Assembly (NCBI GenBank): GCA_964531475.1
Contig: CAZHCS010000001.1
Coordinates: forward strand, 112,739 to 176,738
Source: an uncultured Candidatus Saccharibacteria bacterium
GTDB taxonomy: Bacteria; Patescibacteriota; Minisyncoccia; Phycocordibacterales; CSBR16-119
Length of the DNA stretch: 64,000 bases
Direction: 5' to 3'
Shown: piece after piece, positions 9,320 to 60,136 of the stretch
How positions within the stretch are numbered: the stretch's first letter is position 1
How the letters are laid out: each line of letters begins with the position of its first letter
Notes under the pieces: generated by a model
Databases searched by the model: none
Told to the model about the DNA's origin: nothing
Seen by the model: the letters and a program-made list of their open reading frames with translations, nothing else
Position numbers and translations under genes: made by a program

Positions 9320-9357
9320 ATCCCTACAAGCTAAAAGCTAGTCACTAAAAACTCGTC

Positions 9358-10344
9358 TTAGCGCCTCTTCAAAACTTTTTTAACGGCGAGCTTGATATGG
9401 CTAACGTCCATACCATAGTGAGCAATGAGTTCATCCATCGTGCCTGATTGGCCGAATTGATCATGAACTCCGATAAATTCTTGGAAACAAGGCTTCGTCT
9501 GCGCCAACGCTTCGGCAACAGCGCTACCCATACCGCCAGCGATTTGATGCTCCTCTACCGTAACCACACGGCCTATTTTGCTGACGTAGTCTATCATGGC
9601 CATATCGAGTGGTTTTATGGTAGCAAGATGTATAACGACGGTCTGTATTCCCTCTTCAGAAAGCTCTTTAGCCGCCACAAGTGCGTTGTGTGTCAGTGCG
9701 CCGGTTGAAATGATAGCGACTTTCGGATCAGCTGATTTCCAGAATATCTGTGATTTGCCGATTTCAAAAGATGTGTCTTTGGTTGTGATAACTGGTGTTT
9801 TTTCGCGACCAAGGCGGATGTATACCGGGCCTTCGGACTGTGCGGCCCAAAGAGTCGCTTTCCTGGCTTCTTCGGCATCGCAAGGATTGATAACAGTCAT
9901 TCGCGGCAACATGCGCATGAGACCAATATCTTCAAGCGCTTGATGCGTCGCACCGTCAGGGCCGACCGAGACCCCGGCGTGACAGCCGGCAATTTTTACC
10001 GGGACGTTGTTTATACAGATCGTGGTACGGATCTGTTCATTGTTCCTGCCAGGAGAAAACGAAGCGTATGACATGATGAATGGAATCTTGCCGTAGTTCG
10101 CCATGCCCGATGCCACAGCCGCCAAATTCTGCTCGGCCACGCCCATCTCGACGTAGCGCTTTGGGAATTTTTCCTTGAACCAATGCGCGCGCGTAGACTC
10201 AGCGAGGTCCGCGCACACGGCAATGACTCGCTCATCTTTCTCGCCCGCTTCTACCAATCCATGCCCAAAACCGTCCCTGGTCGGAACTTTCTCGACGCCT
10301 GGAGAGAACAGCTTGTCGTTTAGTTTTGAATTGGCGTTGAGCAT
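9358..10344 (-). CDS. Transketolase, C-terminal (pyrimidine-binding) subunit
   Basis: Split transketolase C-half, with ...EQNLAAVASGMA...PFIMSYASF... and the C-terminal TK_C region. Confidence 0.85.
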   Translation of the reverse strand: MLNANSKLNDKLFSPGVEKVPTRDGFGHGLVEAGEKDERVIAVCADLAESTRAHWFKEKFPKRYVEMGVAEQNLAAVASGMANYGKIPFIMSYASFSPGRNNEQIRTTICINNVPVKIAGCHAGVSVGPDGATHQALEDIGLMRMLPRMTVINPCDAEEARKATLWAAQSEGPVYIRLGREKTPVITTKDTSFEIGKSQIFWKSADPKVAIISTGALTHNALVAAKELSEEGIQTVVIHLATIKPLDMAMIDYVSKIGRVVTVEEHQIAGGMGSAVAEALAQTKPCFQEFIGVHDQFGQSGTMDELIAHYGMDVSHIKLAVKKVLKRR

Positions 10345-10345
10345 A

Positions 10346-10639
10346 TTATTTTAGGTTAAACAAAACTATCAACACAACTGCAATTGCAATTAAAAGCAGC
10401 GTGCCACTTCGCCTCTTTAGGAATTTAGACAGGTATCCTTGCTCTTCGAGACTTTTGGAACCAAACATAAAGAAAACTATTCCAAACACTGGCCCCCAAA
10501 TTAACAGAACAATGGCGGCATCAGATTTTGGAAATGCAGATTGACCCATCATCCAAAGGATCAAAAGCCTAAGACTATTTAGAAGCAGTAAAACCCCAAT
10601 CGTTATTATAAAATAGTTTGTAAGGTTTCCTTTTTTCAT
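10346..10639 (-). CDS. Small membrane protein (2-3 TM)
   Basis: 97-aa hydrophobic ORF wedged between the two transketolase halves, with 1-3 nt gaps on each side. Confidence 0.5.
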   Translation of the reverse strand: MKKGNLTNYFIITIGVLLLLNSLRLLILWMMGQSAFPKSDAAIVLLIWGPVFGIVFFMFGSKSLEEQGYLSKFLKRRSGTLLLIAIAVVLIVLFNLK

Positions 10640-10642
10640 AAT

Positions 10643-11506
10643 TTATTCACTATGACCTCCTTCTATTTTACCTTTCATCGTCCGTAATTCCTTCAACCAC
10701 TTTTGCTCTTGTTCCTTGTTCGGCGGGGTGCCGTGCCATTTGTAGTCGTACTCGATTTCGCTGATGCCTTTGCCGGCAATAGTGCGCGCAATGATGACTG
10801 TCGGCTTCTCGACGATCGCTTTCGCCTGTTCTACCGCGTCGACAATCGCTTCCATATTGTGGCCATCGATCTCGAGCACATGCCAGCCAAATGCACGCCA
10901 TTTATCTGCAAGTGGCTCGAGCGGCATGATGTCTTCGGTCATACCGTTGATCTGTATATTGTTGCGGTCGATCACGGCAGTCAGGTTCGAGAGCTTGTTC
11001 GCGCCGGCGAACATTGCCGCTTCCCAACTATTCCCAGCATCGAGCTCGCCGTCAGACAGGAAGCAATACGTGCGGAATTTTTTGCCGTCCATACGCGCAG
11101 CAAGTGCGTATCCGGCGGCTTGCGAAAGGCCAGAACCGAGTGGGCCAGAAGTAGACTCAAGTCCCGGCAATTTCTCGCGTTCCGGATGCCCCTGGAGCCG
11201 TGAGCAGAACTTACGCAGCGTAGAGAGCTCCTTGAGCGGGAAATACCCGGCATGAGCCATTGTGGCGTATCTGACAGGCACGATATGGCCGTTTGAGAGA
11301 AAGAGCCTGTCACGCTCGTCCCAATCTGGCCGCTTCGGATCGTGCTTCAAGATATGGAAATAAAACGCTGTGAAAATATCCGCCATATCGAGCGGCCCGG
11401 CCGTATGTCCCGAACCGGCGTCTTCGAGCATATCGATAATGCTTTGGCGAATGTCATTCGCCTGTAGCTCGAGCATTTTCTCTTTTCCGGGGTTTAGATT
11501 AGGCAT
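10643..11506 (-). CDS. Transketolase, N-terminal (TPP-binding) subunit
   Basis: ...GSGHTAGPLDMADI...SDGELDAGNSWEA..., the TPP-binding N-half. Confidence 0.85.
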   Translation of the reverse strand: MPNLNPGKEKMLELQANDIRQSIIDMLEDAGSGHTAGPLDMADIFTAFYFHILKHDPKRPDWDERDRLFLSNGHIVPVRYATMAHAGYFPLKELSTLRKFCSRLQGHPEREKLPGLESTSGPLGSGLSQAAGYALAARMDGKKFRTYCFLSDGELDAGNSWEAAMFAGANKLSNLTAVIDRNNIQINGMTEDIMPLEPLADKWRAFGWHVLEIDGHNMEAIVDAVEQAKAIVEKPTVIIARTIAGKGISEIEYDYKWHGTPPNKEQEQKWLKELRTMKGKIEGGHSE

Positions 11507-12176
11507 TTGAAACTCGTTTAAAATCTTCTATTGCAATCTCGGGAGCGTTCGCGCCGAATATCCCTGAGCCGGAGACGAGACGATTCGCGCCGGCGAGGGC
11601 GAGTTCACGCGCGGTTTCAAGGTTTACTCCGCCATCAATAGAAATTATAGCACCTGGCTTTATTTCGCGGACATGACGAACCTGATCAAGTACACGCGGA
11701 TCGAATGGTTGACCCTGGTAGCCGATATTTTCTATACCCATAAGCTGCACAAACGCAGCTTTGCGGATTATTTCACGCCAATTTTCGAGATTATCCGTCG
11801 TTAGAAACGCAATCCCCCACTCAGCGCCAATCTTTTCAATCTCATTTTCAAAAACTTCCCTATCTTCAATCGAATTGGCATGTATTATGAGCCGTGACGC
11901 GCCAAGCTTTACGAATTTTCGTAAGTCCGCTTCTGGTCCGCGTACCATCAGATCAAATTCGTATTTTACTTTGTCGCTAAATGGCAAACGAATCTCGCCG
12001 TCGATTAATTCTTTGACACTCTGTTGATCCTTCGGGAAAAACGGCCACGATTTCGCCTCGACGAATTGCCCGTCCATTAGGTCGAGCTGCACCCACTCGA
12101 CGTGCAAAGCGACCTTCTCGGTATGTTCGCCGATATCGTGAAAGCTTTTCGGCATGATAGCCGGGATAATTTGCAT
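11499..12176 (-). CDS. rpe: Ribulose-phosphate 3-epimerase
   Basis: MQIIPAIMP...DLMDGQFV...SIDGGVN, which is Rpe-like. TAGAAT sits 6 nt upstream of the ATG. Confidence 0.85.
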   Translation of the reverse strand: MQIIPAIMPKSFHDIGEHTEKVALHVEWVQLDLMDGQFVEAKSWPFFPKDQQSVKELIDGEIRLPFSDKVKYEFDLMVRGPEADLRKFVKLGASRLIIHANSIEDREVFENEIEKIGAEWGIAFLTTDNLENWREIIRKAAFVQLMGIENIGYQGQPFDPRVLDQVRHVREIKPGAIISIDGGVNLETARELALAGANRLVSGSGIFGANAPEIAIEDFKRVSNA

Positions 12177-12227
12177 ACTTCTATTCTATCATTTTCTATC
12201 CACTAGAAGCTAACCACTAGCCACTCA

Positions 12228-13220
12228 TTAAAATCCTTGATCCGCGCGACATTCTTCTTGGAGTCTTTTGGTGAAAACATTTTGCGCTTCTTCGAAATTA
12301 TCAGGATTGCCGTCCCAGGCAATGAGTGCGTCGTTTTGTAGTGCGCGTGAGTATGAAAAAGCTATCTGCCACGGCAATGGTTCGAGTTTTGCCATTTCTC
12401 GCAGGTTGTCTGTCGCCTCTTTCGGACTTTGTCCACCCGATAGGAAAACCACGCCAGCTGTTTGCCTAGGCACTATCGCCTTTAAGACATCTGTCGTGTG
12501 CTTTGCAACCGTTGGCGCGTCAGCTCTCGACTCGTTCTGTGAACCAGAAATAACCATACTTGTTTTCAATATGAGCCCTTCGAGAGAAACGAAATACTTC
12601 GGTAGTTCTTCGAACAAAATAGTAAGCACGCGATGCGTTACCTCGCGAGATTTCTCGATAGAGTGCGGTCCATCGAGTAGAACTTCTGGCTCAACTATCG
12701 GGACAATGGATTCATCCTGACAAGCCTTGGCATAACGCGCGAGAATCTTGGCATTTTCACGAATACATTCGTCAGTCGGAGTCGTAGCAGAGATTTTGAA
12801 CGCCGCACGCCATTTAGCAAACGAAGCGCCCATAGCGCGATACTCGGCAAGTCTGCCCGGCAAACCGTTTAGACCCTGGGTAATAGTTTCCTCTGGAGAG
12901 CCTGGCATAGGGACCAAGCCTTCGTCGACTTTGATCCCGATAAGCACGCCGTGCTGCTCCATGTATTTTGTAAACGGTACTCCGTCAGATGTTGATTGCC
13001 TTAGAGTTTCGTCATAAAGAATAATGCCGGTGACGTAGTCTTCGAGATGAGGAGTAGTAATGAGAAGTTCTCGCCAAAGCCTACGCATGCCTTCGGTTTC
13101 GGGAATGCCAAGCGCGTTGAAACGTTTGTTACATGTCGCATTGCTTTCGTCCGCAGCCAAAATACCTTTTTTGGGCTCGACAAGTCTATTAGCGATAGTG
13201 TGAAGCTTTTGGATATCCAT
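12228..13220 (-). CDS. fba: Fructose-bisphosphate aldolase, class I
   Basis: Eukaryote-type class I FBA signature ...GILAADES... and a Schiff-base lysine region. Confidence 0.85.
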   Translation of the reverse strand: MDIQKLHTIANRLVEPKKGILAADESNATCNKRFNALGIPETEGMRRLWRELLITTPHLEDYVTGIILYDETLRQSTSDGVPFTKYMEQHGVLIGIKVDEGLVPMPGSPEETITQGLNGLPGRLAEYRAMGASFAKWRAAFKISATTPTDECIRENAKILARYAKACQDESIVPIVEPEVLLDGPHSIEKSREVTHRVLTILFEELPKYFVSLEGLILKTSMVISGSQNESRADAPTVAKHTTDVLKAIVPRQTAGVVFLSGGQSPKEATDNLREMAKLEPLPWQIAFSYSRALQNDALIAWDGNPDNFEEAQNVFTKRLQEECRADQGF

Positions 13221-13228
13221 GAGGGTAA

Positions 13229-13256
13229 GTTTATAGTTTTTAGGTTATAGTTTATA
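13229..13256. repeat. TTATAGTTTTTAG-type spacer motif, copy A
   Basis: tttatagtttttaggttatagtttatag lies in the fba-rpiB spacer and is part of a 17-bp stem inverted repeat (aggttatagtttatagt / actataaactataacct). Confidence 0.5.
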
Positions 13257-13297
13257 GTAAAAAATCTATGCACTATAAACTATAACCTATGCACTCG

Positions 13298-13741
13298 CTA
13301 ATTATCTAATTTCATTATCCTCCTATTGTGTCGTTCATCTCCGGAAAATTTTGTGGAAAGAAATAGATCAACGGCGGCTTTCGCTTCTTGTTCTGAAATA
13401 AATCGTGCACCGAGCGAGAGAATATTCGCATCATTGTGCTCGCGTGCGAGCTTGATGATTTCTTCTGGTCCGCCGTAGTAGACCGCAGCACGAACACCGA
13501 AAAGCCTGTTAGCCTCTACGGCTTCACCCGTTCCAGTTCCACCGATAACAATACCGAAGGCGTTGGAATCAGTTTCTGCCACCCCTTCGGCAACAAGCGC
13601 GACGAAGTCTGGATAATCGTCTGTCGGATCAAAATGCTCCGGACCCTTGTCCACGACCTCGTGTCCCATAAGCCCAAGATGGCTCACGAGCACTTTCTTC
13701 ATTTCAAAACCGGCGTGATCGCTTGCGATGTAGATTTTCAT
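13298..13741 (-). CDS. rpiB: Ribose-5-phosphate isomerase B
   Basis: MKIYIASDHAGFEMK... RpiB/LacAB family, 147 aa. Confidence 0.85.
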   Translation of the reverse strand: MKIYIASDHAGFEMKKVLVSHLGLMGHEVVDKGPEHFDPTDDYPDFVALVAEGVAETDSNAFGIVIGGTGTGEAVEANRLFGVRAAVYYGGPEEIIKLAREHNDANILSLGARFISEQEAKAAVDLFLSTKFSGDERHNRRIMKLDN

Positions 13742-13745
13742 GTTT

Positions 13746-13773
13746 AGTTTATAGTTTTTAGCTTATAGTGTAT
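13746..13773. repeat. TTATAGTTTTTAG-type spacer motif, copy B
   Basis: tttatagtttttagcttatagtgtatag lies in the rpiB / 4-helix-bundle spacer. Confidence 0.5.
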
Positions 13774-13779
13774 AGAGTA

Positions 13780-14136
13780 TTATTTCAGTTTCTGTCTCAT
13801 TGAGTTTAACATTTTCATTACTTCTGCCAATAGCTTCTCTGCAATTGAAGTATCAATGTTTTTACCGAATGGAAGATTTCTCAGCAAAATTAGTTGAGTC
13901 TCTAGTTCTGCACTTGACCCGTAGGCTATTGTAATAAAATTACAAAAATCCTTTCTTGTCCCTCGTTTACTACCTTCAGCAATATTGGACGGAATTGAAA
14001 CTGCGCATCTGTTCATCTGGGAAGAGAGTCCGAATTTCTCTGATTGTGGTAGCTGAGACGTGATCTCGTATACCTTAATTGCCAACTCCATACTCTTCTG
14101 CCAAACGACCAGGTCTTTGTTGGAATCCAAGCCCAT
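13780..14136 (-). CDS. Four-helix-bundle protein (PF05635-like; rRNA-IVS protein / Avd-like family)
   Basis: ...VWQKSMELAIKVYEIT...NRCAVSIPSNIAEGSKRGTRKDFCNFITIAYGSSAELETQLILL..., the hallmark pattern of this family. Length 118 aa. Confidence 0.7.
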   Translation of the reverse strand: MGLDSNKDLVVWQKSMELAIKVYEITSQLPQSEKFGLSSQMNRCAVSIPSNIAEGSKRGTRKDFCNFITIAYGSSAELETQLILLRNLPFGKNIDTSIAEKLLAEVMKMLNSMRQKLK

Positions 14137-14140
14137 ATTC

Positions 14141-14168
14141 GTCGTCTATAAACTATGCACTAAAAACT
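14141..14168. repeat. TTATAGTTTTTAG-type spacer motif, copy C (inverted)
   Basis: The reverse complement reads gcttatagtttttagtgcatagtttatag, in the 4-helix-bundle / gap spacer. Confidence 0.5.
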
Positions 14169-15201
14169 ATAAGCTCGTCGCTGTCTTCAGTACGTGCTGA
14201 AGCAGCGTCGCCGTATACCCCATCTCGTTGTCGTACCAAGCCATAACTTTGACCAGGTTGCCGCCAACGACGCGCGTCATCTCTAGGTCGACAATGCTCG
14301 GGATCGTCACGCCGATAATGTCTGAGGAAACGATCGGCTCGTCAGTTGCAGTCAGAAGTCCTACCCAACGCGGATCTTTCGAAGCGGTAACGAGAATCTT
14401 GTTAACCTCTTCAACCGTCGTTGGTCTCTTGGAAATGAACGTCACGTCGACAAGCGAGCCGACTGGCACCGGCACGCGAATGGAAATGCCGTCGAAAAGT
14501 CCGGTTAGCGCAGGGAAAGCTTTGGTCACCGCTATCGCCGCGCCCGTAGAACTTGGGACAATATTTTCCGCCGCAGCCCTGCCCTCTCGCAAATCTTTTT
14601 TAGACGGTCCATCAACGAGCGCCTGCGACGCCGTGTATCCGTGAACGGTGGAGAGGATTGCCTTTTCAATACCGAGAGATTCGTGCAAAACGCCAATAAG
14701 TGGCGACGCGGCATTCGTCGTGCATGAAGCATTGGACGTAATATCACATGTGCCGAATTTGTCTTCGTTAACGCCAAGAAGAATCGTTTCGCCAGGTACT
14801 GTTCCGTCAGAGTCTTTCGCTGGCGCGGAAATGACAACCTTCTTCGCACCCTGGTCGAGATGGAATTTGGCCTTCTCAAACGAAGTAAAAAGTCCCGTTG
14901 ATTCTACGACAACGTCGATATTTAAATCTTTCCATGGAAGTCCTGCGGGGTCTTTGGAAGAAACAAATTTCGTCTCGAGCTTTTTAGCACCATCAGAAAC
15001 GACAAGGTTACCGGAACTAAAATCCACAGAAAAAGGCGCACGACCATACACTGTGTCGTATTTGAGGAGATACGCGAGACTTTCTATAGTGCCAAGGTCG
15101 TTCACAGCCACGACTTCTATATCGTCGCGCTCCCAGGCCATCTTATAAAAAGCTCGCCCAATGCGACCAAAACCGTTTATGGCAACACGTACTTTTTGCA
15201 T
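14167..15201 (-). CDS. gap: Glyceraldehyde-3-phosphate dehydrogenase
   Basis: NGFGRIGR Rossmann motif and the SCTTNA active-site signature. Confidence 0.9.
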   Translation of the reverse strand: MQKVRVAINGFGRIGRAFYKMAWERDDIEVVAVNDLGTIESLAYLLKYDTVYGRAPFSVDFSSGNLVVSDGAKKLETKFVSSKDPAGLPWKDLNIDVVVESTGLFTSFEKAKFHLDQGAKKVVISAPAKDSDGTVPGETILLGVNEDKFGTCDITSNASCTTNAASPLIGVLHESLGIEKAILSTVHGYTASQALVDGPSKKDLREGRAAAENIVPSSTGAAIAVTKAFPALTGLFDGISIRVPVPVGSLVDVTFISKRPTTVEEVNKILVTASKDPRWVGLLTATDEPIVSSDIIGVTIPSIVDLEMTRVVGGNLVKVMAWYDNEMGYTATLLQHVLKTATSL

Positions 15202-15260
15202 GAAGATATTTTATCACCACATACTGAAAATACCTCAACAAGTATTTGTCTTATCCACAA

Positions 15261-15285
15261 CTGGTCGAGGTCGGACCTCGACCAG
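15261..15285. repeat. REP palindrome, family 1 (inverted copy)
   Basis: CTGGTCGAGGTCgGACCTCGACCAG, a 25-bp palindrome 18 nt upstream of the RAYT start. Confidence 0.7.
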
Positions 15286-15302
15286 TTTGTTAAAATTAAT
15301 CT

Positions 15303-15920
15303 ATGACTCGAAAAGATTCCTTTACGACCGGTTATCATTATCACGTTTATAATCGTGGTGTCGATAAAAGAAACATTTTCAAAAGCAAATCTGATTATGC
15401 TCGATTTTTAGACATACTCGAGCGTTTCAATAGTTCCCTAGCTGCAAATAATACGTCACGTGATTCAGTTCGCAAGAGAAAAGAAGACCTATCGTTAGTC
15501 AAAATTCACGCACATTGCTTAATGCCGAATCATTACCATCTTATTTTGGAGCAGCTTGTAGACAATGGGATTTCAAAATTTCTTCAAAAAGTAATGACGG
15601 GCTATACGATGTATTTCAATTTGAAACACGAACGATCAGGCGTTTTATTCCAAGGCAAGACAAAATCAAAACTTATACTAGAGGACGACTATCTCCGTTG
15701 GCTTAAGCAGTACATTGCACTCAATCCACTCGATCTCCATACACCAAATTGGAAAGAAAATGGAATTCAAGATCATAAAAGTGCAATCAATTTTTTGAAA
15801 GATTACGCTTATAGAAGCGAATACGATTATAACGATTGCGACCTTAACGGCTTTATTAAAGAATTACAAGAAGACAACTGGTCGAGGTCCGACCTCGACC
15901 AGGTGCGCGTTGAGAAATAA
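15303..15920 (+). CDS. IS200-like Y1 transposase (REP-associated tyrosine transposase, RAYT-like)
   Basis: HUH motif CLMPNHYHLILE and the catalytic-Tyr helix KQYIALNPLDL. The 3' end of the ORF runs through a REP copy. Confidence 0.8.
   Translation: MTRKDSFTTGYHYHVYNRGVDKRNIFKSKSDYARFLDILERFNSSLAANNTSRDSVRKRKEDLSLVKIHAHCLMPNHYHLILEQLVDNGISKFLQKVMTGYTMYFNLKHERSGVLFQGKTKSKLILEDDYLRWLKQYIALNPLDLHTPNWKENGIQDHKSAINFLKDYAYRSEYDYNDCDLNGFIKELQEDNWSRSDLDQVRVEK
15878..15902. repeat. REP palindrome, family 1
   Basis: CTGGTCGAGGTCcGACCTCGACCAG inside the last codons of the RAYT gene (WSRSDLDQV). Confidence 0.7.
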
Positions 15921-15980
15921 ATTGGTGGAAAAGCAAAGCGCCCCGTCGAAACAGGGCGCCAAGATGCTATTAGCTCATGC

Positions 15981-16463
15981 CTACGGCAGGTAGTACTTGA
16001 GATCCGAGTACCCGCCATCACTATCAGGATTAGCTTCCCACCCGAAGTCTTTCACCAGATGGTCTCTGAGCAGCTGTGCCATGGCAGCAAGTGCCTTTTT
16101 CCATTCAGGGTATTTCGTTTCAGAGTCCCTGAAGTCCACATAGTGAACACCGTCGGTGATACCGAGGATGCAATGATAGCGCTCTCCCTCATTGGGATAC
16201 AGGTTGATTCTCAACCCGATCAGATCTACGTCTTTGTTAATATCGAAAACGTACCTGGTCAATATTGTCATTCCAGGATATTCGTCACTAAGTCTTGCCC
16301 CCTTGGCATTGTTTGAATGACCATCAAGATCAAGAATTGCCTCTGGGGGCAAGACCTCTAGCCTGACACCCTTGTTCTCTGAGTTATGAACGTCCCACCG
16401 CTGAAAAGCGTCTGCCAACTCCTCAACGAGAACTCGAGCGATCTTATACTGGAGCATGTCCAT
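15981..16463 (-). CDS. Hypothetical protein
   Basis: 160-aa ORF adjacent to the RAYT unit. No motif recognised. Confidence 0.45.
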   Translation of the reverse strand: MDMLQYKIARVLVEELADAFQRWDVHNSENKGVRLEVLPPEAILDLDGHSNNAKGARLSDEYPGMTILTRYVFDINKDVDLIGLRINLYPNEGERYHCILGITDGVHYVDFRDSETKYPEWKKALAAMAQLLRDHLVKDFGWEANPDSDGGYSDLKYYLP

Positions 16464-16537
16464 TTTGCAATTGTGTTGTGCCCTTTTCAGGAGCTGGTTT
16501 GTACTTTTTGTGTCGGTAATTTTATAGCATTTTATTA

Positions 16538-17962
16538 CTATTTTGTCAATATTTCCTGGAGTATCTTCAAGGCAAGCTGCGGATTGGCGCTTCCCTTAGA
16601 CTCACGCATAAACTGCCCGACGAGGAATTGGATGGATTTTTCGTTACCGGATTTGTAGTCTAGGGCGACTTTCGGATTGGCGACGATGATGGCTTCGGCG
16701 GTGGCCTTGAGTTTACCTTCGTCGAATTCTTGAATGAGGCCGTGCTCTTTGGCGAAAGTCTCTGGATCGATATCAGCTTTTACGATTTCCGCGATAAGGT
16801 CTTTGGCTCCACGAGAGCTTAGTTTATTGTCGCCGAGCATCTGCATGATTTTCGCAAAGCTTTCTGGTTTCGGGAATTTAAAATCTGCGCCAGCAATCTT
16901 TCGAAGACCATTTAAATCAGACAAAATATAGTTCACTGCTGGTCGAGGTCCGACCTCGACCAGGATTGCTTCGAGAAATTGGATTAATTCAAAATCTGAA
17001 ACGAGAATCTCAACATCCTCATCTTTAATGCCAAGCGCCTTCAGCCTCTCACGCTTCGCAGACGGAAGTTCTGGCAATTCCGCTCGCATCTTTTCAAGAT
17101 CAAACATCTCATGCAAGTACATCTTCGGAATATCTGGTTCCGGGAAGTAACGATAGTCGTGAGAATCTTCTTTCTTCCTTTGTGAAAATGTCGATTGTTT
17201 GTTTTCGTCCCATCCGCGCGTTTCTTGGATAATCTCGCTTCCCTTGCCAGCTTCAAGAAGCGCAATGTGGCGCTTGATCTCGTACTCGGCCGCTTTTTCG
17301 ACAGCTTTGAAAGAGTTTATGTTTTTGACTTCGACTTTTGTGCCAAATTTGTCCGTATCAGAAACAGACAAGTTCAGCTCTACACGCATTTCACCCTTTT
17401 CCATGTTCGCATCAGACACACCGAGGGTTCGGAGAAGTAATTGGAGTTCGCGTCCGAAGTCACCCGCTTCTTTGGCGCTATGAATTACTGGTTCGGTAAC
17501 GAGTTCCATGAGTGGCACACCAGCGCGATTGTAGTCGATGAGCGAAAAGCCCGCCCCGACCGAAGCGTCGGGGTCGCCATCCCTGTGTTTGTTGTTCGCG
17601 GTATCTTCTTCGAGATGCACGCGCGTTACAGCGACACCATTGAGTTTTCCACCAGAAACGATCGGATATTTGTATTGAGAAATTTGGTAGCCTTTCGGGA
17701 TATCCGGATAGAAATAGTTCTTGCGGTCAAATTCGGTGAAGTTCGCGATGTTGGCACCGAGCGCGAGGCCGACTTTGACCACGCTCTCGACGGCTTTCAT
17801 ATTCGGCACAGGCAAAGTTCCTGGATGCGCCATACATACGGGACAAACATTGACGTTTGGCTTTTCCTCGTCGGGATTATTCCGGCACGCGCAAAACATC
17901 TTGGTAGTTGTTTTCAACTCCGCGTGAATTTCTAACCCAATTGTGACTTTGTAATCTTTCAT
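16538..17962 (-). CDS. gatB: Asp-tRNA(Asn)/Glu-tRNA(Gln) amidotransferase subunit B
   Basis: MKDYKVTIGLEIHAEL... GatB N-terminus and a C-terminal GatB/YqeY domain. It contains an in-frame REP copy at 16939-16963. Confidence 0.9.
   Translation of the reverse strand: MKDYKVTIGLEIHAELKTTTKMFCACRNNPDEEKPNVNVCPVCMAHPGTLPVPNMKAVESVVKVGLALGANIANFTEFDRKNYFYPDIPKGYQISQYKYPIVSGGKLNGVAVTRVHLEEDTANNKHRDGDPDASVGAGFSLIDYNRAGVPLMELVTEPVIHSAKEAGDFGRELQLLLRTLGVSDANMEKGEMRVELNLSVSDTDKFGTKVEVKNINSFKAVEKAAEYEIKRHIALLEAGKGSEIIQETRGWDENKQSTFSQRKKEDSHDYRYFPEPDIPKMYLHEMFDLEKMRAELPELPSAKRERLKALGIKDEDVEILVSDFELIQFLEAILVEVGPRPAVNYILSDLNGLRKIAGADFKFPKPESFAKIMQMLGDNKLSSRGAKDLIAEIVKADIDPETFAKEHGLIQEFDEGKLKATAEAIIVANPKVALDYKSGNEKSIQFLVGQFMRESKGSANPQLALKILQEILTK
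16939..16963. repeat. REP palindrome, family 1, embedded in-frame in gatB
   Basis: An identical 25-mer encoding LVEVGPRPA within the GatB linker region. Confidence 0.7.
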
Positions 17963-25774: not shown

Positions 25775-25799
25775 CTGGTCGAGGTCCGACCTCGACCAG
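25775..25799. repeat. REP palindrome, family 1
   Basis: An identical 25-mer starting directly after the rmuC stop codon. Confidence 0.7.
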
Positions 25800-58175: not shown

Positions 58176-59210
58176 TCACACCGTGAATTCGGACTCGGAA
58201 GGATTAAAATTTGCCAAAAATTCCCTTGTTAATCTCTCGATAGTTTCATAATCACTAGCTTCCATGAGTTCGATGCGCAATTCTTTTGCACCATGAAAAC
58301 CGTTCACATAGGCTTTGTAATGCTTTTTCATGAGAGCAAAATTTTTCTTCTCGCCAATAAGCTCAATAAAAAGTTTCGTGTGTTTAAGCATGGTTTCAAG
58401 ACGCTCTACCATACCGACCTCCCCCTTGGATTCATCAAAAAGCCAAGGTCTTCCGAAAATAGCCCGTCCAAGCATGACACCATCGCAACCACTTACCTGC
58501 GCCTTGTCTCTGGCATCAGAGATATCTCTTGCGTCACCGTTACCAATTACTAGTGTTTCCGGAGATATTTGGTCACGAAGTCGCAAGATTTCTGGCATAA
58601 GTTCCCAGTGGGCCGGAACTAACGACATTTCTTTTCTGGTGCGCAAATGAAAAGTTACTGCAGGCAATTTCCATGACAAAACTTCTTTGACCCAATTCCA
58701 TTCAAGCGAGTTATACCCGATGCGAGTTTTTATAGTAACTGGGATTTCTCGACCGGCAGACTCGACGCCTCGACGAGCTGCTTCAAGAATGCTTTTTGCG
58801 AGCTCTGGATCGCGCATCGAATACGCGCCGGATTTGGACTTTTCTATAGAACGATCCGGGCATCCCATATTTATATCGATGCCGTCAAAACCAAGTTCGG
58901 CACACAACCGCGCCGCAAATTCCATGTTCGCTGGATTACCGCCAAATAGCTGCGCAATAATAGGTCGTTCAGCTTCGGTATACAAAAGATCTATAGACAA
59001 AGCTTCGCGCCCTTTGTCGGATGCGAGCCCGTCAGCCGAAACAAACTCTGTCCATGTTGCATCGGGAGCCTGGTGGTCAGCTATGAGCTTACGAAATGCA
59101 CGGTCGGTTACGTCAGCCATAGGGGCCAAGACGAAAAACGGACGCCGGTCCTTTAGATTTTTCCAGAAGCCGAAATTAATTTCTTGCATAAGTTTAGTGA
59201 TAAGTATCAA
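58176..59210 (-). CDS. dus: tRNA-dihydrouridine synthase
   Basis: TIM-barrel Dus pattern (FVLAPMADVTD...). Confidence 0.85.
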   Translation of the reverse strand: MILITKLMQEINFGFWKNLKDRRPFFVLAPMADVTDRAFRKLIADHQAPDATWTEFVSADGLASDKGREALSIDLLYTEAERPIIAQLFGGNPANMEFAARLCAELGFDGIDINMGCPDRSIEKSKSGAYSMRDPELAKSILEAARRGVESAGREIPVTIKTRIGYNSLEWNWVKEVLSWKLPAVTFHLRTRKEMSLVPAHWELMPEILRLRDQISPETLVIGNGDARDISDARDKAQVSGCDGVMLGRAIFGRPWLFDESKGEVGMVERLETMLKHTKLFIELIGEKKNFALMKKHYKAYVNGFHGAKELRIELMEASDYETIERLTREFLANFNPSESEFTV

Positions 59211-59254
59211 GTAGTAGGTATCAAAGAATAGAGCCCAAACTTGATACTTTATAC

Positions 59255-60136
59255 TTACTGCTTAATACTTGTTTCTTCGAACCTGTACAATACCCTGCCC
59301 TGGAATCGCGTGTCAATGTATTCCAAGTACAGAGGGCGTTCAGCAAACACAGCTTTGAAATCTGCCTCGCCAACAGCGGCTTCTACCTTGCGTAGCGTCG
59401 AAATCAAAGACTCGTCTTCGTTGAACAAAAGAGTTGCGAATTTGCCTGTCAAAGAAGGATGGTCAAGAAGAAGCGTATGTTGTCCATCAAGCCCGATAAC
59501 TACAGAGTGTGCTGGTAGCCCTATGTCCGCTAAGCCTTCAACAAAATCAGAAAACTGCGCCATACTGCTCGTAGTAGCCAGAGTTGTTCCAATAGGCTGT
59601 GTCGGATCTGAAATACCGCCATAAAACACAAGATAAACTCCATCGGTAAAAAAAGGAGCCCTATCGAAAATAAAACCTCCATGATCTATAAAGTAACAAG
59701 GGTTTGATTTAAATCTTTCTTCATAGAGAGGCGCGTCAGAGCCGCACCAAGCATAGGCTGCGGTACGCTCTTTTATTTCTATGATTAGACTAGAGCCGTT
59801 ACGCTCGATAGACGTGACAGATTCTATTCTAGGAAAAAGTTCGGAGACTTTAGAAGATATTCGTTCTTTGGAAAACAAAAATATATTACCGCGCGCGTAA
59901 ACGAGCGCCTGATTACCATTCAAATATTCACGAATACGAGCAGAAACTTCTTCCGGAGAAACAATGCGCGTGCCTTCTACCAAAACATCGGTGATCAAAA
60001 GTTTTGGCAAATGCGACAACGCGCCCAGTCCAAAAAAAAGTGCGGCAAGCAAAAAAATACCGAGAGTGAATCTACCTAACGCCCTGCGGCGCACTTCTAC
60101 CTTGACTGCTGACGGACTAGGAGCGACATGCCTCAT
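59255..60136 (-). CDS. FtsQ/DivIB-like division protein (POTRA domain)
   Basis: N-terminal TM segment followed by a POTRA-like region (ITDVLVEGTRIVSPEEV). Confidence 0.5.
   Translation of the reverse strand: MRHVAPSPSAVKVEVRRRALGRFTLGIFLLAALFFGLGALSHLPKLLITDVLVEGTRIVSPEEVSARIREYLNGNQALVYARGNIFLFSKERISSKVSELFPRIESVTSIERNGSSLIIEIKERTAAYAWCGSDAPLYEERFKSNPCYFIDHGGFIFDRAPFFTDGVYLVFYGGISDPTQPIGTTLATTSSMAQFSDFVEGLADIGLPAHSVVIGLDGQHTLLLDHPSLTGKFATLLFNEDESLISTLRKVEAAVGEADFKAVFAERPLYLEYIDTRFQGRVLYRFEETSIKQ

Follow-up and report, generated by a model that had tools for sequence, protein, structure and literature searches.

The stretch of DNA analysed here (the window: 64,000 nucleotides of contig CAZHCS010000001.1 from an uncultured Candidatus Saccharibacteria bacterium) carries a string of sugar-metabolism genes in which a gene for a four-helix-bundle (4HB) protein of family PF05635 lies between gap and rpiB. 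The motif that recurs in the spacers of this segment is the cis element of a 4HB cassette of the intervening-sequence (IVS) type, located in a messenger RNA operon. The cassette begins with an array (N4-NAG)x5 that starts from the upstream stop codon, continues about 10-15 nt further on with the PF05635 open reading frame (ORF), and closes with an array (CTN-N4)x5 that runs up to the downstream start codon. We hold this identification with great confidence. Since the cassette does not lie inside 23S rRNA, which is the defining feature of an IVS, we describe it as a variant of that kind rather than as a member.

Heptad arrays in the window

Profile matches identify gap (14167-15201), the 118-residue 4HB gene (13780-14136; PF05635 / TIGR02436), rpiB (13298-13741) and a class-I fba (12228-13220), all on the minus strand and all as named in an earlier reading of the same letters (the original prediction). 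That reading had described a motif of roughly 28 nt in three copies, upstream of fba, rpiB and the 4HB gene. The three copies are present at these places and far exceed chance: within 64 kb, TTATAGTTTTTAG with at most two mismatches is matched 9 times against 1.8 expected, with 6 of the matches in 13231-14172, and ATAGTKTATAG is matched 11 times against 1.1 expected, with 10 matches in the gap/4HB/rpiB/fba segment. The motif is real, but its description has to be changed. It is made of tandem 7-nt units, NNN[A/T]TAG, which on the mRNA (minus) strand read (N4-NAG)x5 or the complement (CTN-N4)x5, and it occurs in four arrays of about 35 nt each (5, 5, 5 and 6 units with AG or CT in phase), the fourth being located at 13266-13300 on the minus strand. 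On this strand, a sense array and an antisense array enclose the 4HB gene, rpiB comes next, and a second sense array, followed by its antisense partner, precedes fba.

The 5' sense array of the cassette (14146-14180, minus strand) reads CGACGAG CTTATAG TTTTTAG TGCATAG TTTATAG, and the TAG of its second unit is the stop codon of gap (14167-14169). The 3' antisense array (13741-13775, minus strand) reads CTATACA CTATAAG CTAAAAA CTATAAA CTAAACA, and its final A also opens the start codon of rpiB. The inverted repeats that had been reported on either side of the 4HB ORF are borne out: 13746-13776 on the plus strand and 14145-14175 on the minus strand are complementary at 84% of 31 nt. In the predicted fold of the cassette, these arms close the 4HB ORF in the minimum-free-energy (MFE) structure as well as in the centroid structure (z = -2.8).

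The spacer between rpiB and fba contains the same pair of arms without an ORF, an assignment that we consider just as firm. The sense arm of this hairpin (13266-13300, minus strand; TAGCGAG TGCATAG GTTATAG TTTATAG TGCATAG) takes its first TAG from the rpiB stop codon. The antisense arm (13223-13257, minus strand; CTATAAA CTATAAC CTAAAAA CTATAAA CTTACCC) begins 8 nt beyond the sense arm, ends 2 nt before the ATG of fba, and is 93% identical to the 3' array of the cassette over 30 nt. Together they contain a perfect 18-bp palindrome (13241-13258 / 13272-13289), which is predicted to form a stem of 19 bp (-26 kcal/mol, z = -5.2); the original prediction had recognised this palindrome with a stem of 17 bp. 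It had also listed CTATGCACT repeats beside the same motif copy. These repeats exist, and are better described as the other arm of the palindrome, that is, as the fourth array. The features of an intrinsic terminator (a GC-rich stem and a U tract) are absent from the hairpin, the stem of which is AU-rich and followed by AAAAACUAUAAAC, and a terminator scan returned no terminator-like site at any of the arrays. An Rfam scan of the window found no rRNA and no known RNA family, only sub-threshold matches to microRNA-like hairpins.

Two further arrays, both outside the positions covered by the original prediction, consist of a single sense arm, and we are equally sure of this reading. One lies on the minus strand right after the stop codon of fba (12196-12227; TGAG TGGCTAG TGGTTAG CTTCTAG TGGATAG) and the other right after the stop codon of tktC, at the end of the gene string (9324-9357, minus strand; GACGAG TTTTTAG TGACTAG CTTTTAG CTTGTAG). 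The pattern YGAG(N4TAG)3 has exactly 4 sites in the 64 kb against 0.00 expected, all of them on the minus strand and each directly after a stop codon of the sugar-metabolism operon. In total, the spacers of this gene string hold six arrays, and only one further candidate was found elsewhere in the 64 kb: a possibly related, ORF-less pair with the unit TATCAAG / CTTGATA on the minus strand between an FtsQ-like ORF and dus (59200-59285), for which the predicted hairpin falls short of significance (z = -1.25). Within the 64 kb, the exact unit family occurs in one operon only.

Arrays at PF05635 genes across phyla

We surveyed 80 loci coding for relatives of the 4HB protein, with one genome per species and the genome of the window not included. 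These loci come from Patescibacteria, Bacteroidota, Bacillota, Acidobacteriota, Verrucomicrobiota, Planctomycetota, Proteobacteria and other phyla. The best flank-to-flank inverted repeat reached at least the 95th percentile of mismatched-pair controls at 69 of 82 loci (the 80 plus three orthologous contigs, minus one locus with short flanks). A triplet recurring at least three times in phase had a period of 7 in 108 of 160 flanks and a period of 8 in 32 (other periods, 5-16). At a period of 7-8, in-phase AG was detected upstream of the PF05635 gene at 61 of the 80 loci (controls, 2.5%) and in-phase CT downstream of it at 55 (controls, 2%). The number of in-phase units peaks at five, a count found in 27 of 53 period-7 upstream arrays; period-8 arrays were too few to distinguish a constraint on copy number from one on total length.

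The occurrence of the arrays goes with that of PF05635 genes. Arrays are present in 105 of 126 spacers adjacent to a 4HB gene and in 27 of the 98 remaining spacers at these loci (p = 2e-17), and many of these 27 are ORF-less pairs. Solo hairpins built from the unit of the local 4HB cassette occur in the window and at loci L020 and L045. The unit itself is locus-specific (AGTGGTT, GAGTATT, TTAGAAG, GTGACGA and others), differs between two paralogues located 1-2 kb apart in one locus, and can be GC-rich (CGGGACC, GTGACGA). The PF05635 gene is generally co-directional with its neighbours (71 of 77 upstream, 68 of 79 downstream), and the 18 of 80 loci without co-directional neighbours on both sides have long flanking ORFs all the same. 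The upstream gene ends in TAG at 38 of 74 loci (51%), compared with a background of 31 in 164 (19%). The first in-phase unit starts at a median of 7 nt before the end of this stop codon, with clusters at -7 and -14, which implies that this codon frequently supplies the TAG of unit 1 or unit 2. The 3' array ends at a median of 7 nt before the next possible start codon. Arrays flank 4HB genes on viral contigs as well. None of the 80 surveyed loci is apparently inside an rRNA gene, and the comparison of rRNA-borne with operon-borne cassettes made below therefore draws on the published Coxiella work.

Two observations from the survey concern arrays that depart from the common form. Two consecutive spacers of L035 (3417-3516 and 4181-4280) contain near-identical ORF-less elements, in each of which a TAG-type arm is separated from a CTACGTA-type arm by some 40 nt of conserved loop. 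They resemble a small dispersed repeat that descends from this architecture. At other loci the arrays are expanded far past five units: 10 x TCCTAACC (L008:2873-2953), about 10 x CCACTAA (downstream array of L036) and 8 x AGAATCA (L042:4106-4166). Such expansions indicate that the arrays also behave as slippage-prone microsatellites.

Conservation among relatives of the locus

The 4HB gene is found between gap and rpiB in seven further contigs, which share 96% to 70% nucleotide identity with the window and code for 4HB proteins 99% to 68% identical to that of the window. The cassette is old and was inherited vertically at this site. The ORF is under strong purifying selection, with dN/dS values of 0.04-0.09 at saturated synonymous sites (pS 0.64-0.91). 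Among lineages with GTAG-type units, differences between the arrays are limited to 0-2 of 28 nt despite this saturation, and the arrays are conserved at least 10-fold better than synonymous sites. Arrays that are nearly invariant where synonymous sites are saturated are selected, and are not neutral insertion scars. The original prediction had offered footprints of a 4HB gene insertion as one explanation; the arrays do belong to the 4HB cassette, but passive scars they are not.

All of the approximately 17 units in the cassette arms and hairpin of the window, and likewise those of its relative L001, contain ATAG / CTAT, whereas other relatives contain GTAG / CTAC. The change is concerted and compensatory between the arms. 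A natural hybrid also exists: in L002, L003 and L004 the 5' units are of the ATAG type and the 3' units of the CTAC type, which places an A.C mismatch in every unit. Since this hybrid was recovered from three separate samples, mismatched arms are evidently tolerated.

The ORF-less elements are more variable. Between the window and L001, the stretch from gap to rpe is 96.3% identical on either side of a sole indel, the 67-nt hairpin element (13232-13298, minus strand), which is missing from L001 and at which no target-site duplication is visible. The array behind fba is identical in L001; in L002, L005 and L093, the fba-rpe spacer contains a complete hairpin of the GTAG type instead. With gene order kept, arrays are absent from the rpiB-fba spacer in L001, L087 and L089, and from the gap-rpiB spacer in L086, L088 and L089. 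The comparison with relatives lacking the 4HB gene, which the original prediction had called for, thus gave a mixed picture: L087 has an ORF-less array pair at the same gap-rpiB junction, and L086, L088 and L089 have small ORFs of other kinds and no arrays there. The 35-nt loop of the L087 hairpin is not recognisable as a remnant of the 4HB ORF (alignment score 11-12; shuffle maximum, 15.5; not significant). In L086 and L088, the gene next after rpiB is closely preceded by arrays of the antisense type only.

The gap-rpiB spacer is also an insertion hot spot, the contents of which vary by relative (L086:2072-2497, L088:2081-2460, L089:2382-2500). It may hold the 4HB cassette, a 141-residue acidic ORF of no known family, an antisense ORF of 86 residues, or an ORF for a hydrophobic peptide of about 37 residues that is conserved between L088 and L089.

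The 4HB protein and related systems

The 4HB protein scores 129.4 bits against PF05635 (cut-off 33.8) and 121.7 against TIGR02436 (cut-off 24), and its closest homologues carry labels that indicate a genome of the Patescibacteria (CPR). Models for Avd, the accessory protein of diversity-generating retroelements (DGRs), remain under their cut-offs (NF033474, 25.9 vs 80; PF22296, 28.8 vs 40). Avd is a distant homologue with the same four-helix-bundle fold and is described as a pentamer in the DGR literature. The 4HB gene differs from it in its surroundings, with gap and rpiB as neighbours and no adjoining reverse transcriptase or template/variable repeats. The nearest solved relatives, 2gsc and 2rld, have five chains in each PDB entry, and a Xanthomonas homologue has been cited as a homopentameric toroid (PMC4990558).

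The closest parallel to the cassette is provided by the rRNA IVSs of Coxiella burnetii, Leptospira and others, which likewise contain a PF05635 ORF enclosed by stem-forming terminal inverted repeats. In the 23S rRNA IVS of C. burnetii, the ORF is located in the loop of a 28-bp terminal stem that is cut by RNase III, and three or four tandem heptamers GACAGAT (NAG-N4), the number of which varies between strains, stand just before the ATG of S23p (PMC4990558). Tandem heptamers close upstream of the ORF start are therefore shared as well. The systems differ in location, since IVSs occupy helix 25 or 45 of 23S rRNA and the cassette of the window lies between the protein-coding genes gap and rpiB. 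In addition, the arms in the window are less perfectly complementary, its ORF is intact and selected rather than decaying, and cleavage by RNase III is known for IVSs, whereas it is only predicted for the cassette.

A second parallel comes from Geobacter metallireducens, in which Aklujkar et al. (2009) described three classes of paired sites on opposite strands, Gmet_I1-I3, with 24 + 21 + 8 pairs (PMC2700814). Each site consists of 3-5 tandem repeats of 7-9 nt, for example five MTYCTGA units, and the pairs occupy spacers between genes that follow one another in an operon, proB-proA and moaA-mosC among them; they were called global regulator binding sites, with a guess at IHF/HU-type proteins (PMC2700814). 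The rpiB-fba hairpin (13223-13300) has the same anatomy of paired, opposite-strand tandem repeats. This likeness is one of description, and the Gmet_I sites are known from one genome, were attributed to IHF/HU and have never been linked to PF05635.

For the reading of such repeats by a ring-shaped protein, HutP offers a model. This ring hexamer reads XAG triplets spaced 4 nt apart, with the A and the G as the bases that it recognises, and opens a stem by doing so; TRAP acts in a similar way (PMC2425495). The arrays discussed here share with these systems the NAG triplets at fixed short spacing (period 7 for HutP, 7-8 for the arrays of the survey) and possibly the rule of one repeat per ring protomer, given that the peak at five units matches the five chains of the PDB relatives. 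HutP and TRAP are unrelated to PF05635 in fold and family: a profile search with the 4HB protein returned matches to PF05635 and bAvd-like families only, and no HutP or TRAP homology. They also have no counterpart to the complementary second array, and binding of the repeats, established for HutP, is a proposal for the 4HB protein.

Short intergenic palindromes between co-directional genes that are present in one genome and absent from another are also typical of REP/RAYT systems, miniature inverted-repeat transposable elements (MITEs) and Rickettsia palindromic elements. The GTAG core of the units in relatives recalls the GTAG head of REP sequences. In contrast to these elements, the arrays in the window are tandem heptads instead of a single palindrome, have few copies per segment and show no target-site duplication, and the RAYT-like gene of the window is tied to a different, 25-nt palindrome.

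A possible mechanism

From the architecture, generality, conservation and predicted pairing of the arrays we infer binding by the protein, cleavage by RNase III and a regulatory outcome. The heptads would serve as recognition units on the operon transcript, one for each protomer of a pentameric 4HB protein, and the NAG repeats would be read in the manner of HutP and TRAP. Unbound arms would pair into a stem of 24-31 bp that loops out the 4HB ORF and lies against the start codon of rpiB. As in rRNA IVSs, this arm-to-arm stem would be a likely substrate for RNase III, and protein bound to the sense arm would compete with its formation. The cassette may thereby regulate itself as well as the translation or processing of its neighbours, and hence be tolerated, or even needed, in an essential operon. 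We assign this mechanism as a whole a probability of roughly 0.4. By analogy with rRNA IVSs, the notion of an RNA processing site, one of the explanations put forward originally, is plausible. No ORF with an RNase III signature was found in the 64-kb window, which says nothing about the rest of the genome.

Several points weigh against this proposal. Direct evidence would be needed both for binding of the repeats by any PF05635 protein and for the form of nucleic acid that would be bound. A protein that binds single-stranded RNA accounts for the sense arm only, and the antisense arm requires the added idea of competition with the stem. In C. burnetii, the S23p ORF seems to be untranslated and decaying while the IVS persists (PMC4990558), so a role of the arms need not depend on the protein. 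The concerted change between ATAG and GTAG is essentially one evolutionary event, and gene conversion among arrays that lie within 1 kb of one another could have produced it. As best matches to one query alignment of the Patescibacteria type, the 80 loci are not a random sample of the family, and their ORF starts and neighbouring genes were called mechanically. Finally, copy number ranges from 3 to 10 units, and the solo hairpins of L056 and L035 have units unlike those of the local 4HB arrays.

A broader version of the pentamer proposal would extend it to the whole family. PF05635 / TIGR02436 would then be a very large family of pentameric rings, each reading its own five-heptad NAG code with one unit for every protomer. 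Every gene would be flanked by its cognate inverted arrays, which would pair across the ORF as far as the start codon of the next host gene and make the cassette a self-recognising selfish module; we regard this as speculation with rather low odds. We are similarly doubtful of its corollary that downstream translation or processing in the host depends on the protein (an addiction at the RNA level), with ORF-less arrays as targets in trans. It also seems improbable that rRNA IVSs are a special case of this module, brought about when a cassette of the kind inserted into 23S rRNA.

Alternative explanations

If the arms existed only to pair, RNase III cleavage or insulation by the stem would be their whole function, the cassette would be a harmless passenger, and the heptad period would be a by-product of slippage. 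Excision of PF05635-bearing IVSs by RNase III via a 28-bp terminal stem has indeed been shown experimentally (PMC4990558). Furthermore, the arms are about 84% complementary over a median of 28 nt, the closing stem is predicted in MFE and centroid structures, and unit position 4 shows G-C to A-U double changes, with 80% of cells pairing compared with 18-49% in slid registers. However, the 282 arm mismatches in 62 loci include 54 G.U and 61 A.C, so that wobble pairs are not enriched, and the identities per unit in mirrored (5.50), reversed (5.62) and permuted order (5.46) contain no mirror-order signal and hence no mirror symmetry at the level of the register. Complementarity between the arms holds per unit, not per base pair. 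Pairing also leaves unexplained the universal 7-8-nt period, the conserved AG and the five-unit peak, and it is difficult to reconcile with the mismatched hybrid from three separate samples, with single unpaired arms and with strong purifying selection on the ORF. Taken with the fixed period, an AG that does not vary, unit counts that peak at five, the conservation and the single unpaired arms, these results argue that units are recognised and that pairing alone is insufficient, and we consider a pure RNA stem unlikely. An even less likely possibility, in our view, is that the element acts at the level of DNA, with the inverted arrays as the ends of a small mobile or recombining cassette, the ORF-less hairpins as MITE-like derivatives, and a recombinase or the 4HB protein as the DNA-binding partner. 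Transposon ends typically carry several copies of a subterminal repeat, inverted with respect to each other. Genomes that are 96% identical differ in whether they have the 67-nt hairpin, ORF-less pairs occur in other spacers, including the two near-identical copies with a conserved loop in L035, and relatives have different inserts in the gap-rpiB spacer. In G. metallireducens, insertion sequence (IS) elements lie a constant distance away from such paired sites (PMC2700814). Against a mobile element stand the lack of a visible target-site duplication at the hairpin indel, the retention of the cassette at one site through saturating divergence, and the fact that each locus has its own unit, and hence no family of identical copies exists. 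No transposase is associated with the arrays either, and the adjacent RAYT-like gene, which is missing from L001, has different palindromes.

The original prediction had also suggested a shared operator for a glycolytic regulator. The concentration of six arrays in the spacers of one sugar-metabolism gene string, with one other candidate in 64 kb, would suit an operator for a regulator of glycolysis or the pentose-phosphate pathway. This interpretation is not supported, since PF05635 genes of many phyla have this architecture on both sides whatever the function of their operon, and arrays are missing from the syntenic spacers of relatives. The arrays are also located between cistrons and not at a promoter, and a promoter scan gave only weak 9-of-12 promoter-like matches, which are due to TATAGT. 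We therefore judge an operator to be very improbable. Finally, AT-rich units in short spacers might suggest low-complexity sequence arising by chance, or neutral scars of insertion. Shuffle controls yield 0-2 expected matches, the arrays are far better conserved than synonymous sites, and GC-rich versions exist at other loci, which leaves this explanation with practically no weight. Overall, the observation behind the original prediction is confirmed, and its interpretation is partly supported.

Other features of the segment

Downstream of fba, the gene string continues on the minus strand with rpe (11499-12176), followed by tktN, the N-terminal transketolase gene (10643-11506), a membrane-like ORF of 97 residues (10346-10639), and tktC, the C-terminal transketolase gene (9358-10344). 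Transketolase is thus encoded by two genes with the 97-residue ORF in between (9358-11506). L001 has an extra ORF of 136 residues between rpe and tktN that the window does not have. Models of the PADLOC collection of defence systems found no match.

On the other side of gap, a RAYT-like (IS200/Y1-type) ORF on the plus strand (15303-15920) falls slightly short of the family cut-offs. A perfect 25-nt palindrome, CTGGTCGAGGTC[C/G]GACCTCGACCAG, is present in four copies (15261-15285, 15878-15902, 16939-16963 and 25775-25799), one of them just upstream of the RAYT-like ORF and one within its 3' end. A third copy is located within the frame of gatB, where it codes for ..LVEVGPRP.., and is reminiscent of the in-frame palindromic elements known from Rickettsia. 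The block 15217-16553, which comprises the RAYT-like ORF and an ORF of 160 residues, is lacking in L001, in which gap comes directly after gatB. The two sequences are 96% identical in gap and the genes downstream of it, and about 83% identical in gatB.

Implications

In Bacteroidota, Patescibacteria, cyanobacteria and other groups, few small proteins of unknown function are as common as those of PF05635 / TIGR02436 (4HB / S23p), which reach dozens of copies in some genomes. To our knowledge, no role has been established for them since their discovery in rRNA intervening sequences some 30 years ago. Our literature search, which was incomplete and leaves room for an earlier description, returned nothing that connects PF05635 genes in general to flanking heptad arrays.

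Taken alone, the feature in the window is modest, and the interesting part is the regularity across the family. The survey reveals a conserved nucleic-acid signature around PF05635 genes, namely inverted arrays of five heptads with an invariant AG that are locus-specific and selected, and this heptad signature is common to the copies in ordinary operons and to rRNA IVSs. For annotation, it helps to recognise the boundaries of cassettes and their ORF-less derivatives. If the proposed link is true, the unexplained intergenic repeat pairs of Geobacter would be accounted for. The signature turns a family of unknown function into a set of testable ideas: that a pentamer may sit on five heptads, that RNase III may process the transcript, and that the cassette may affect its neighbouring genes.

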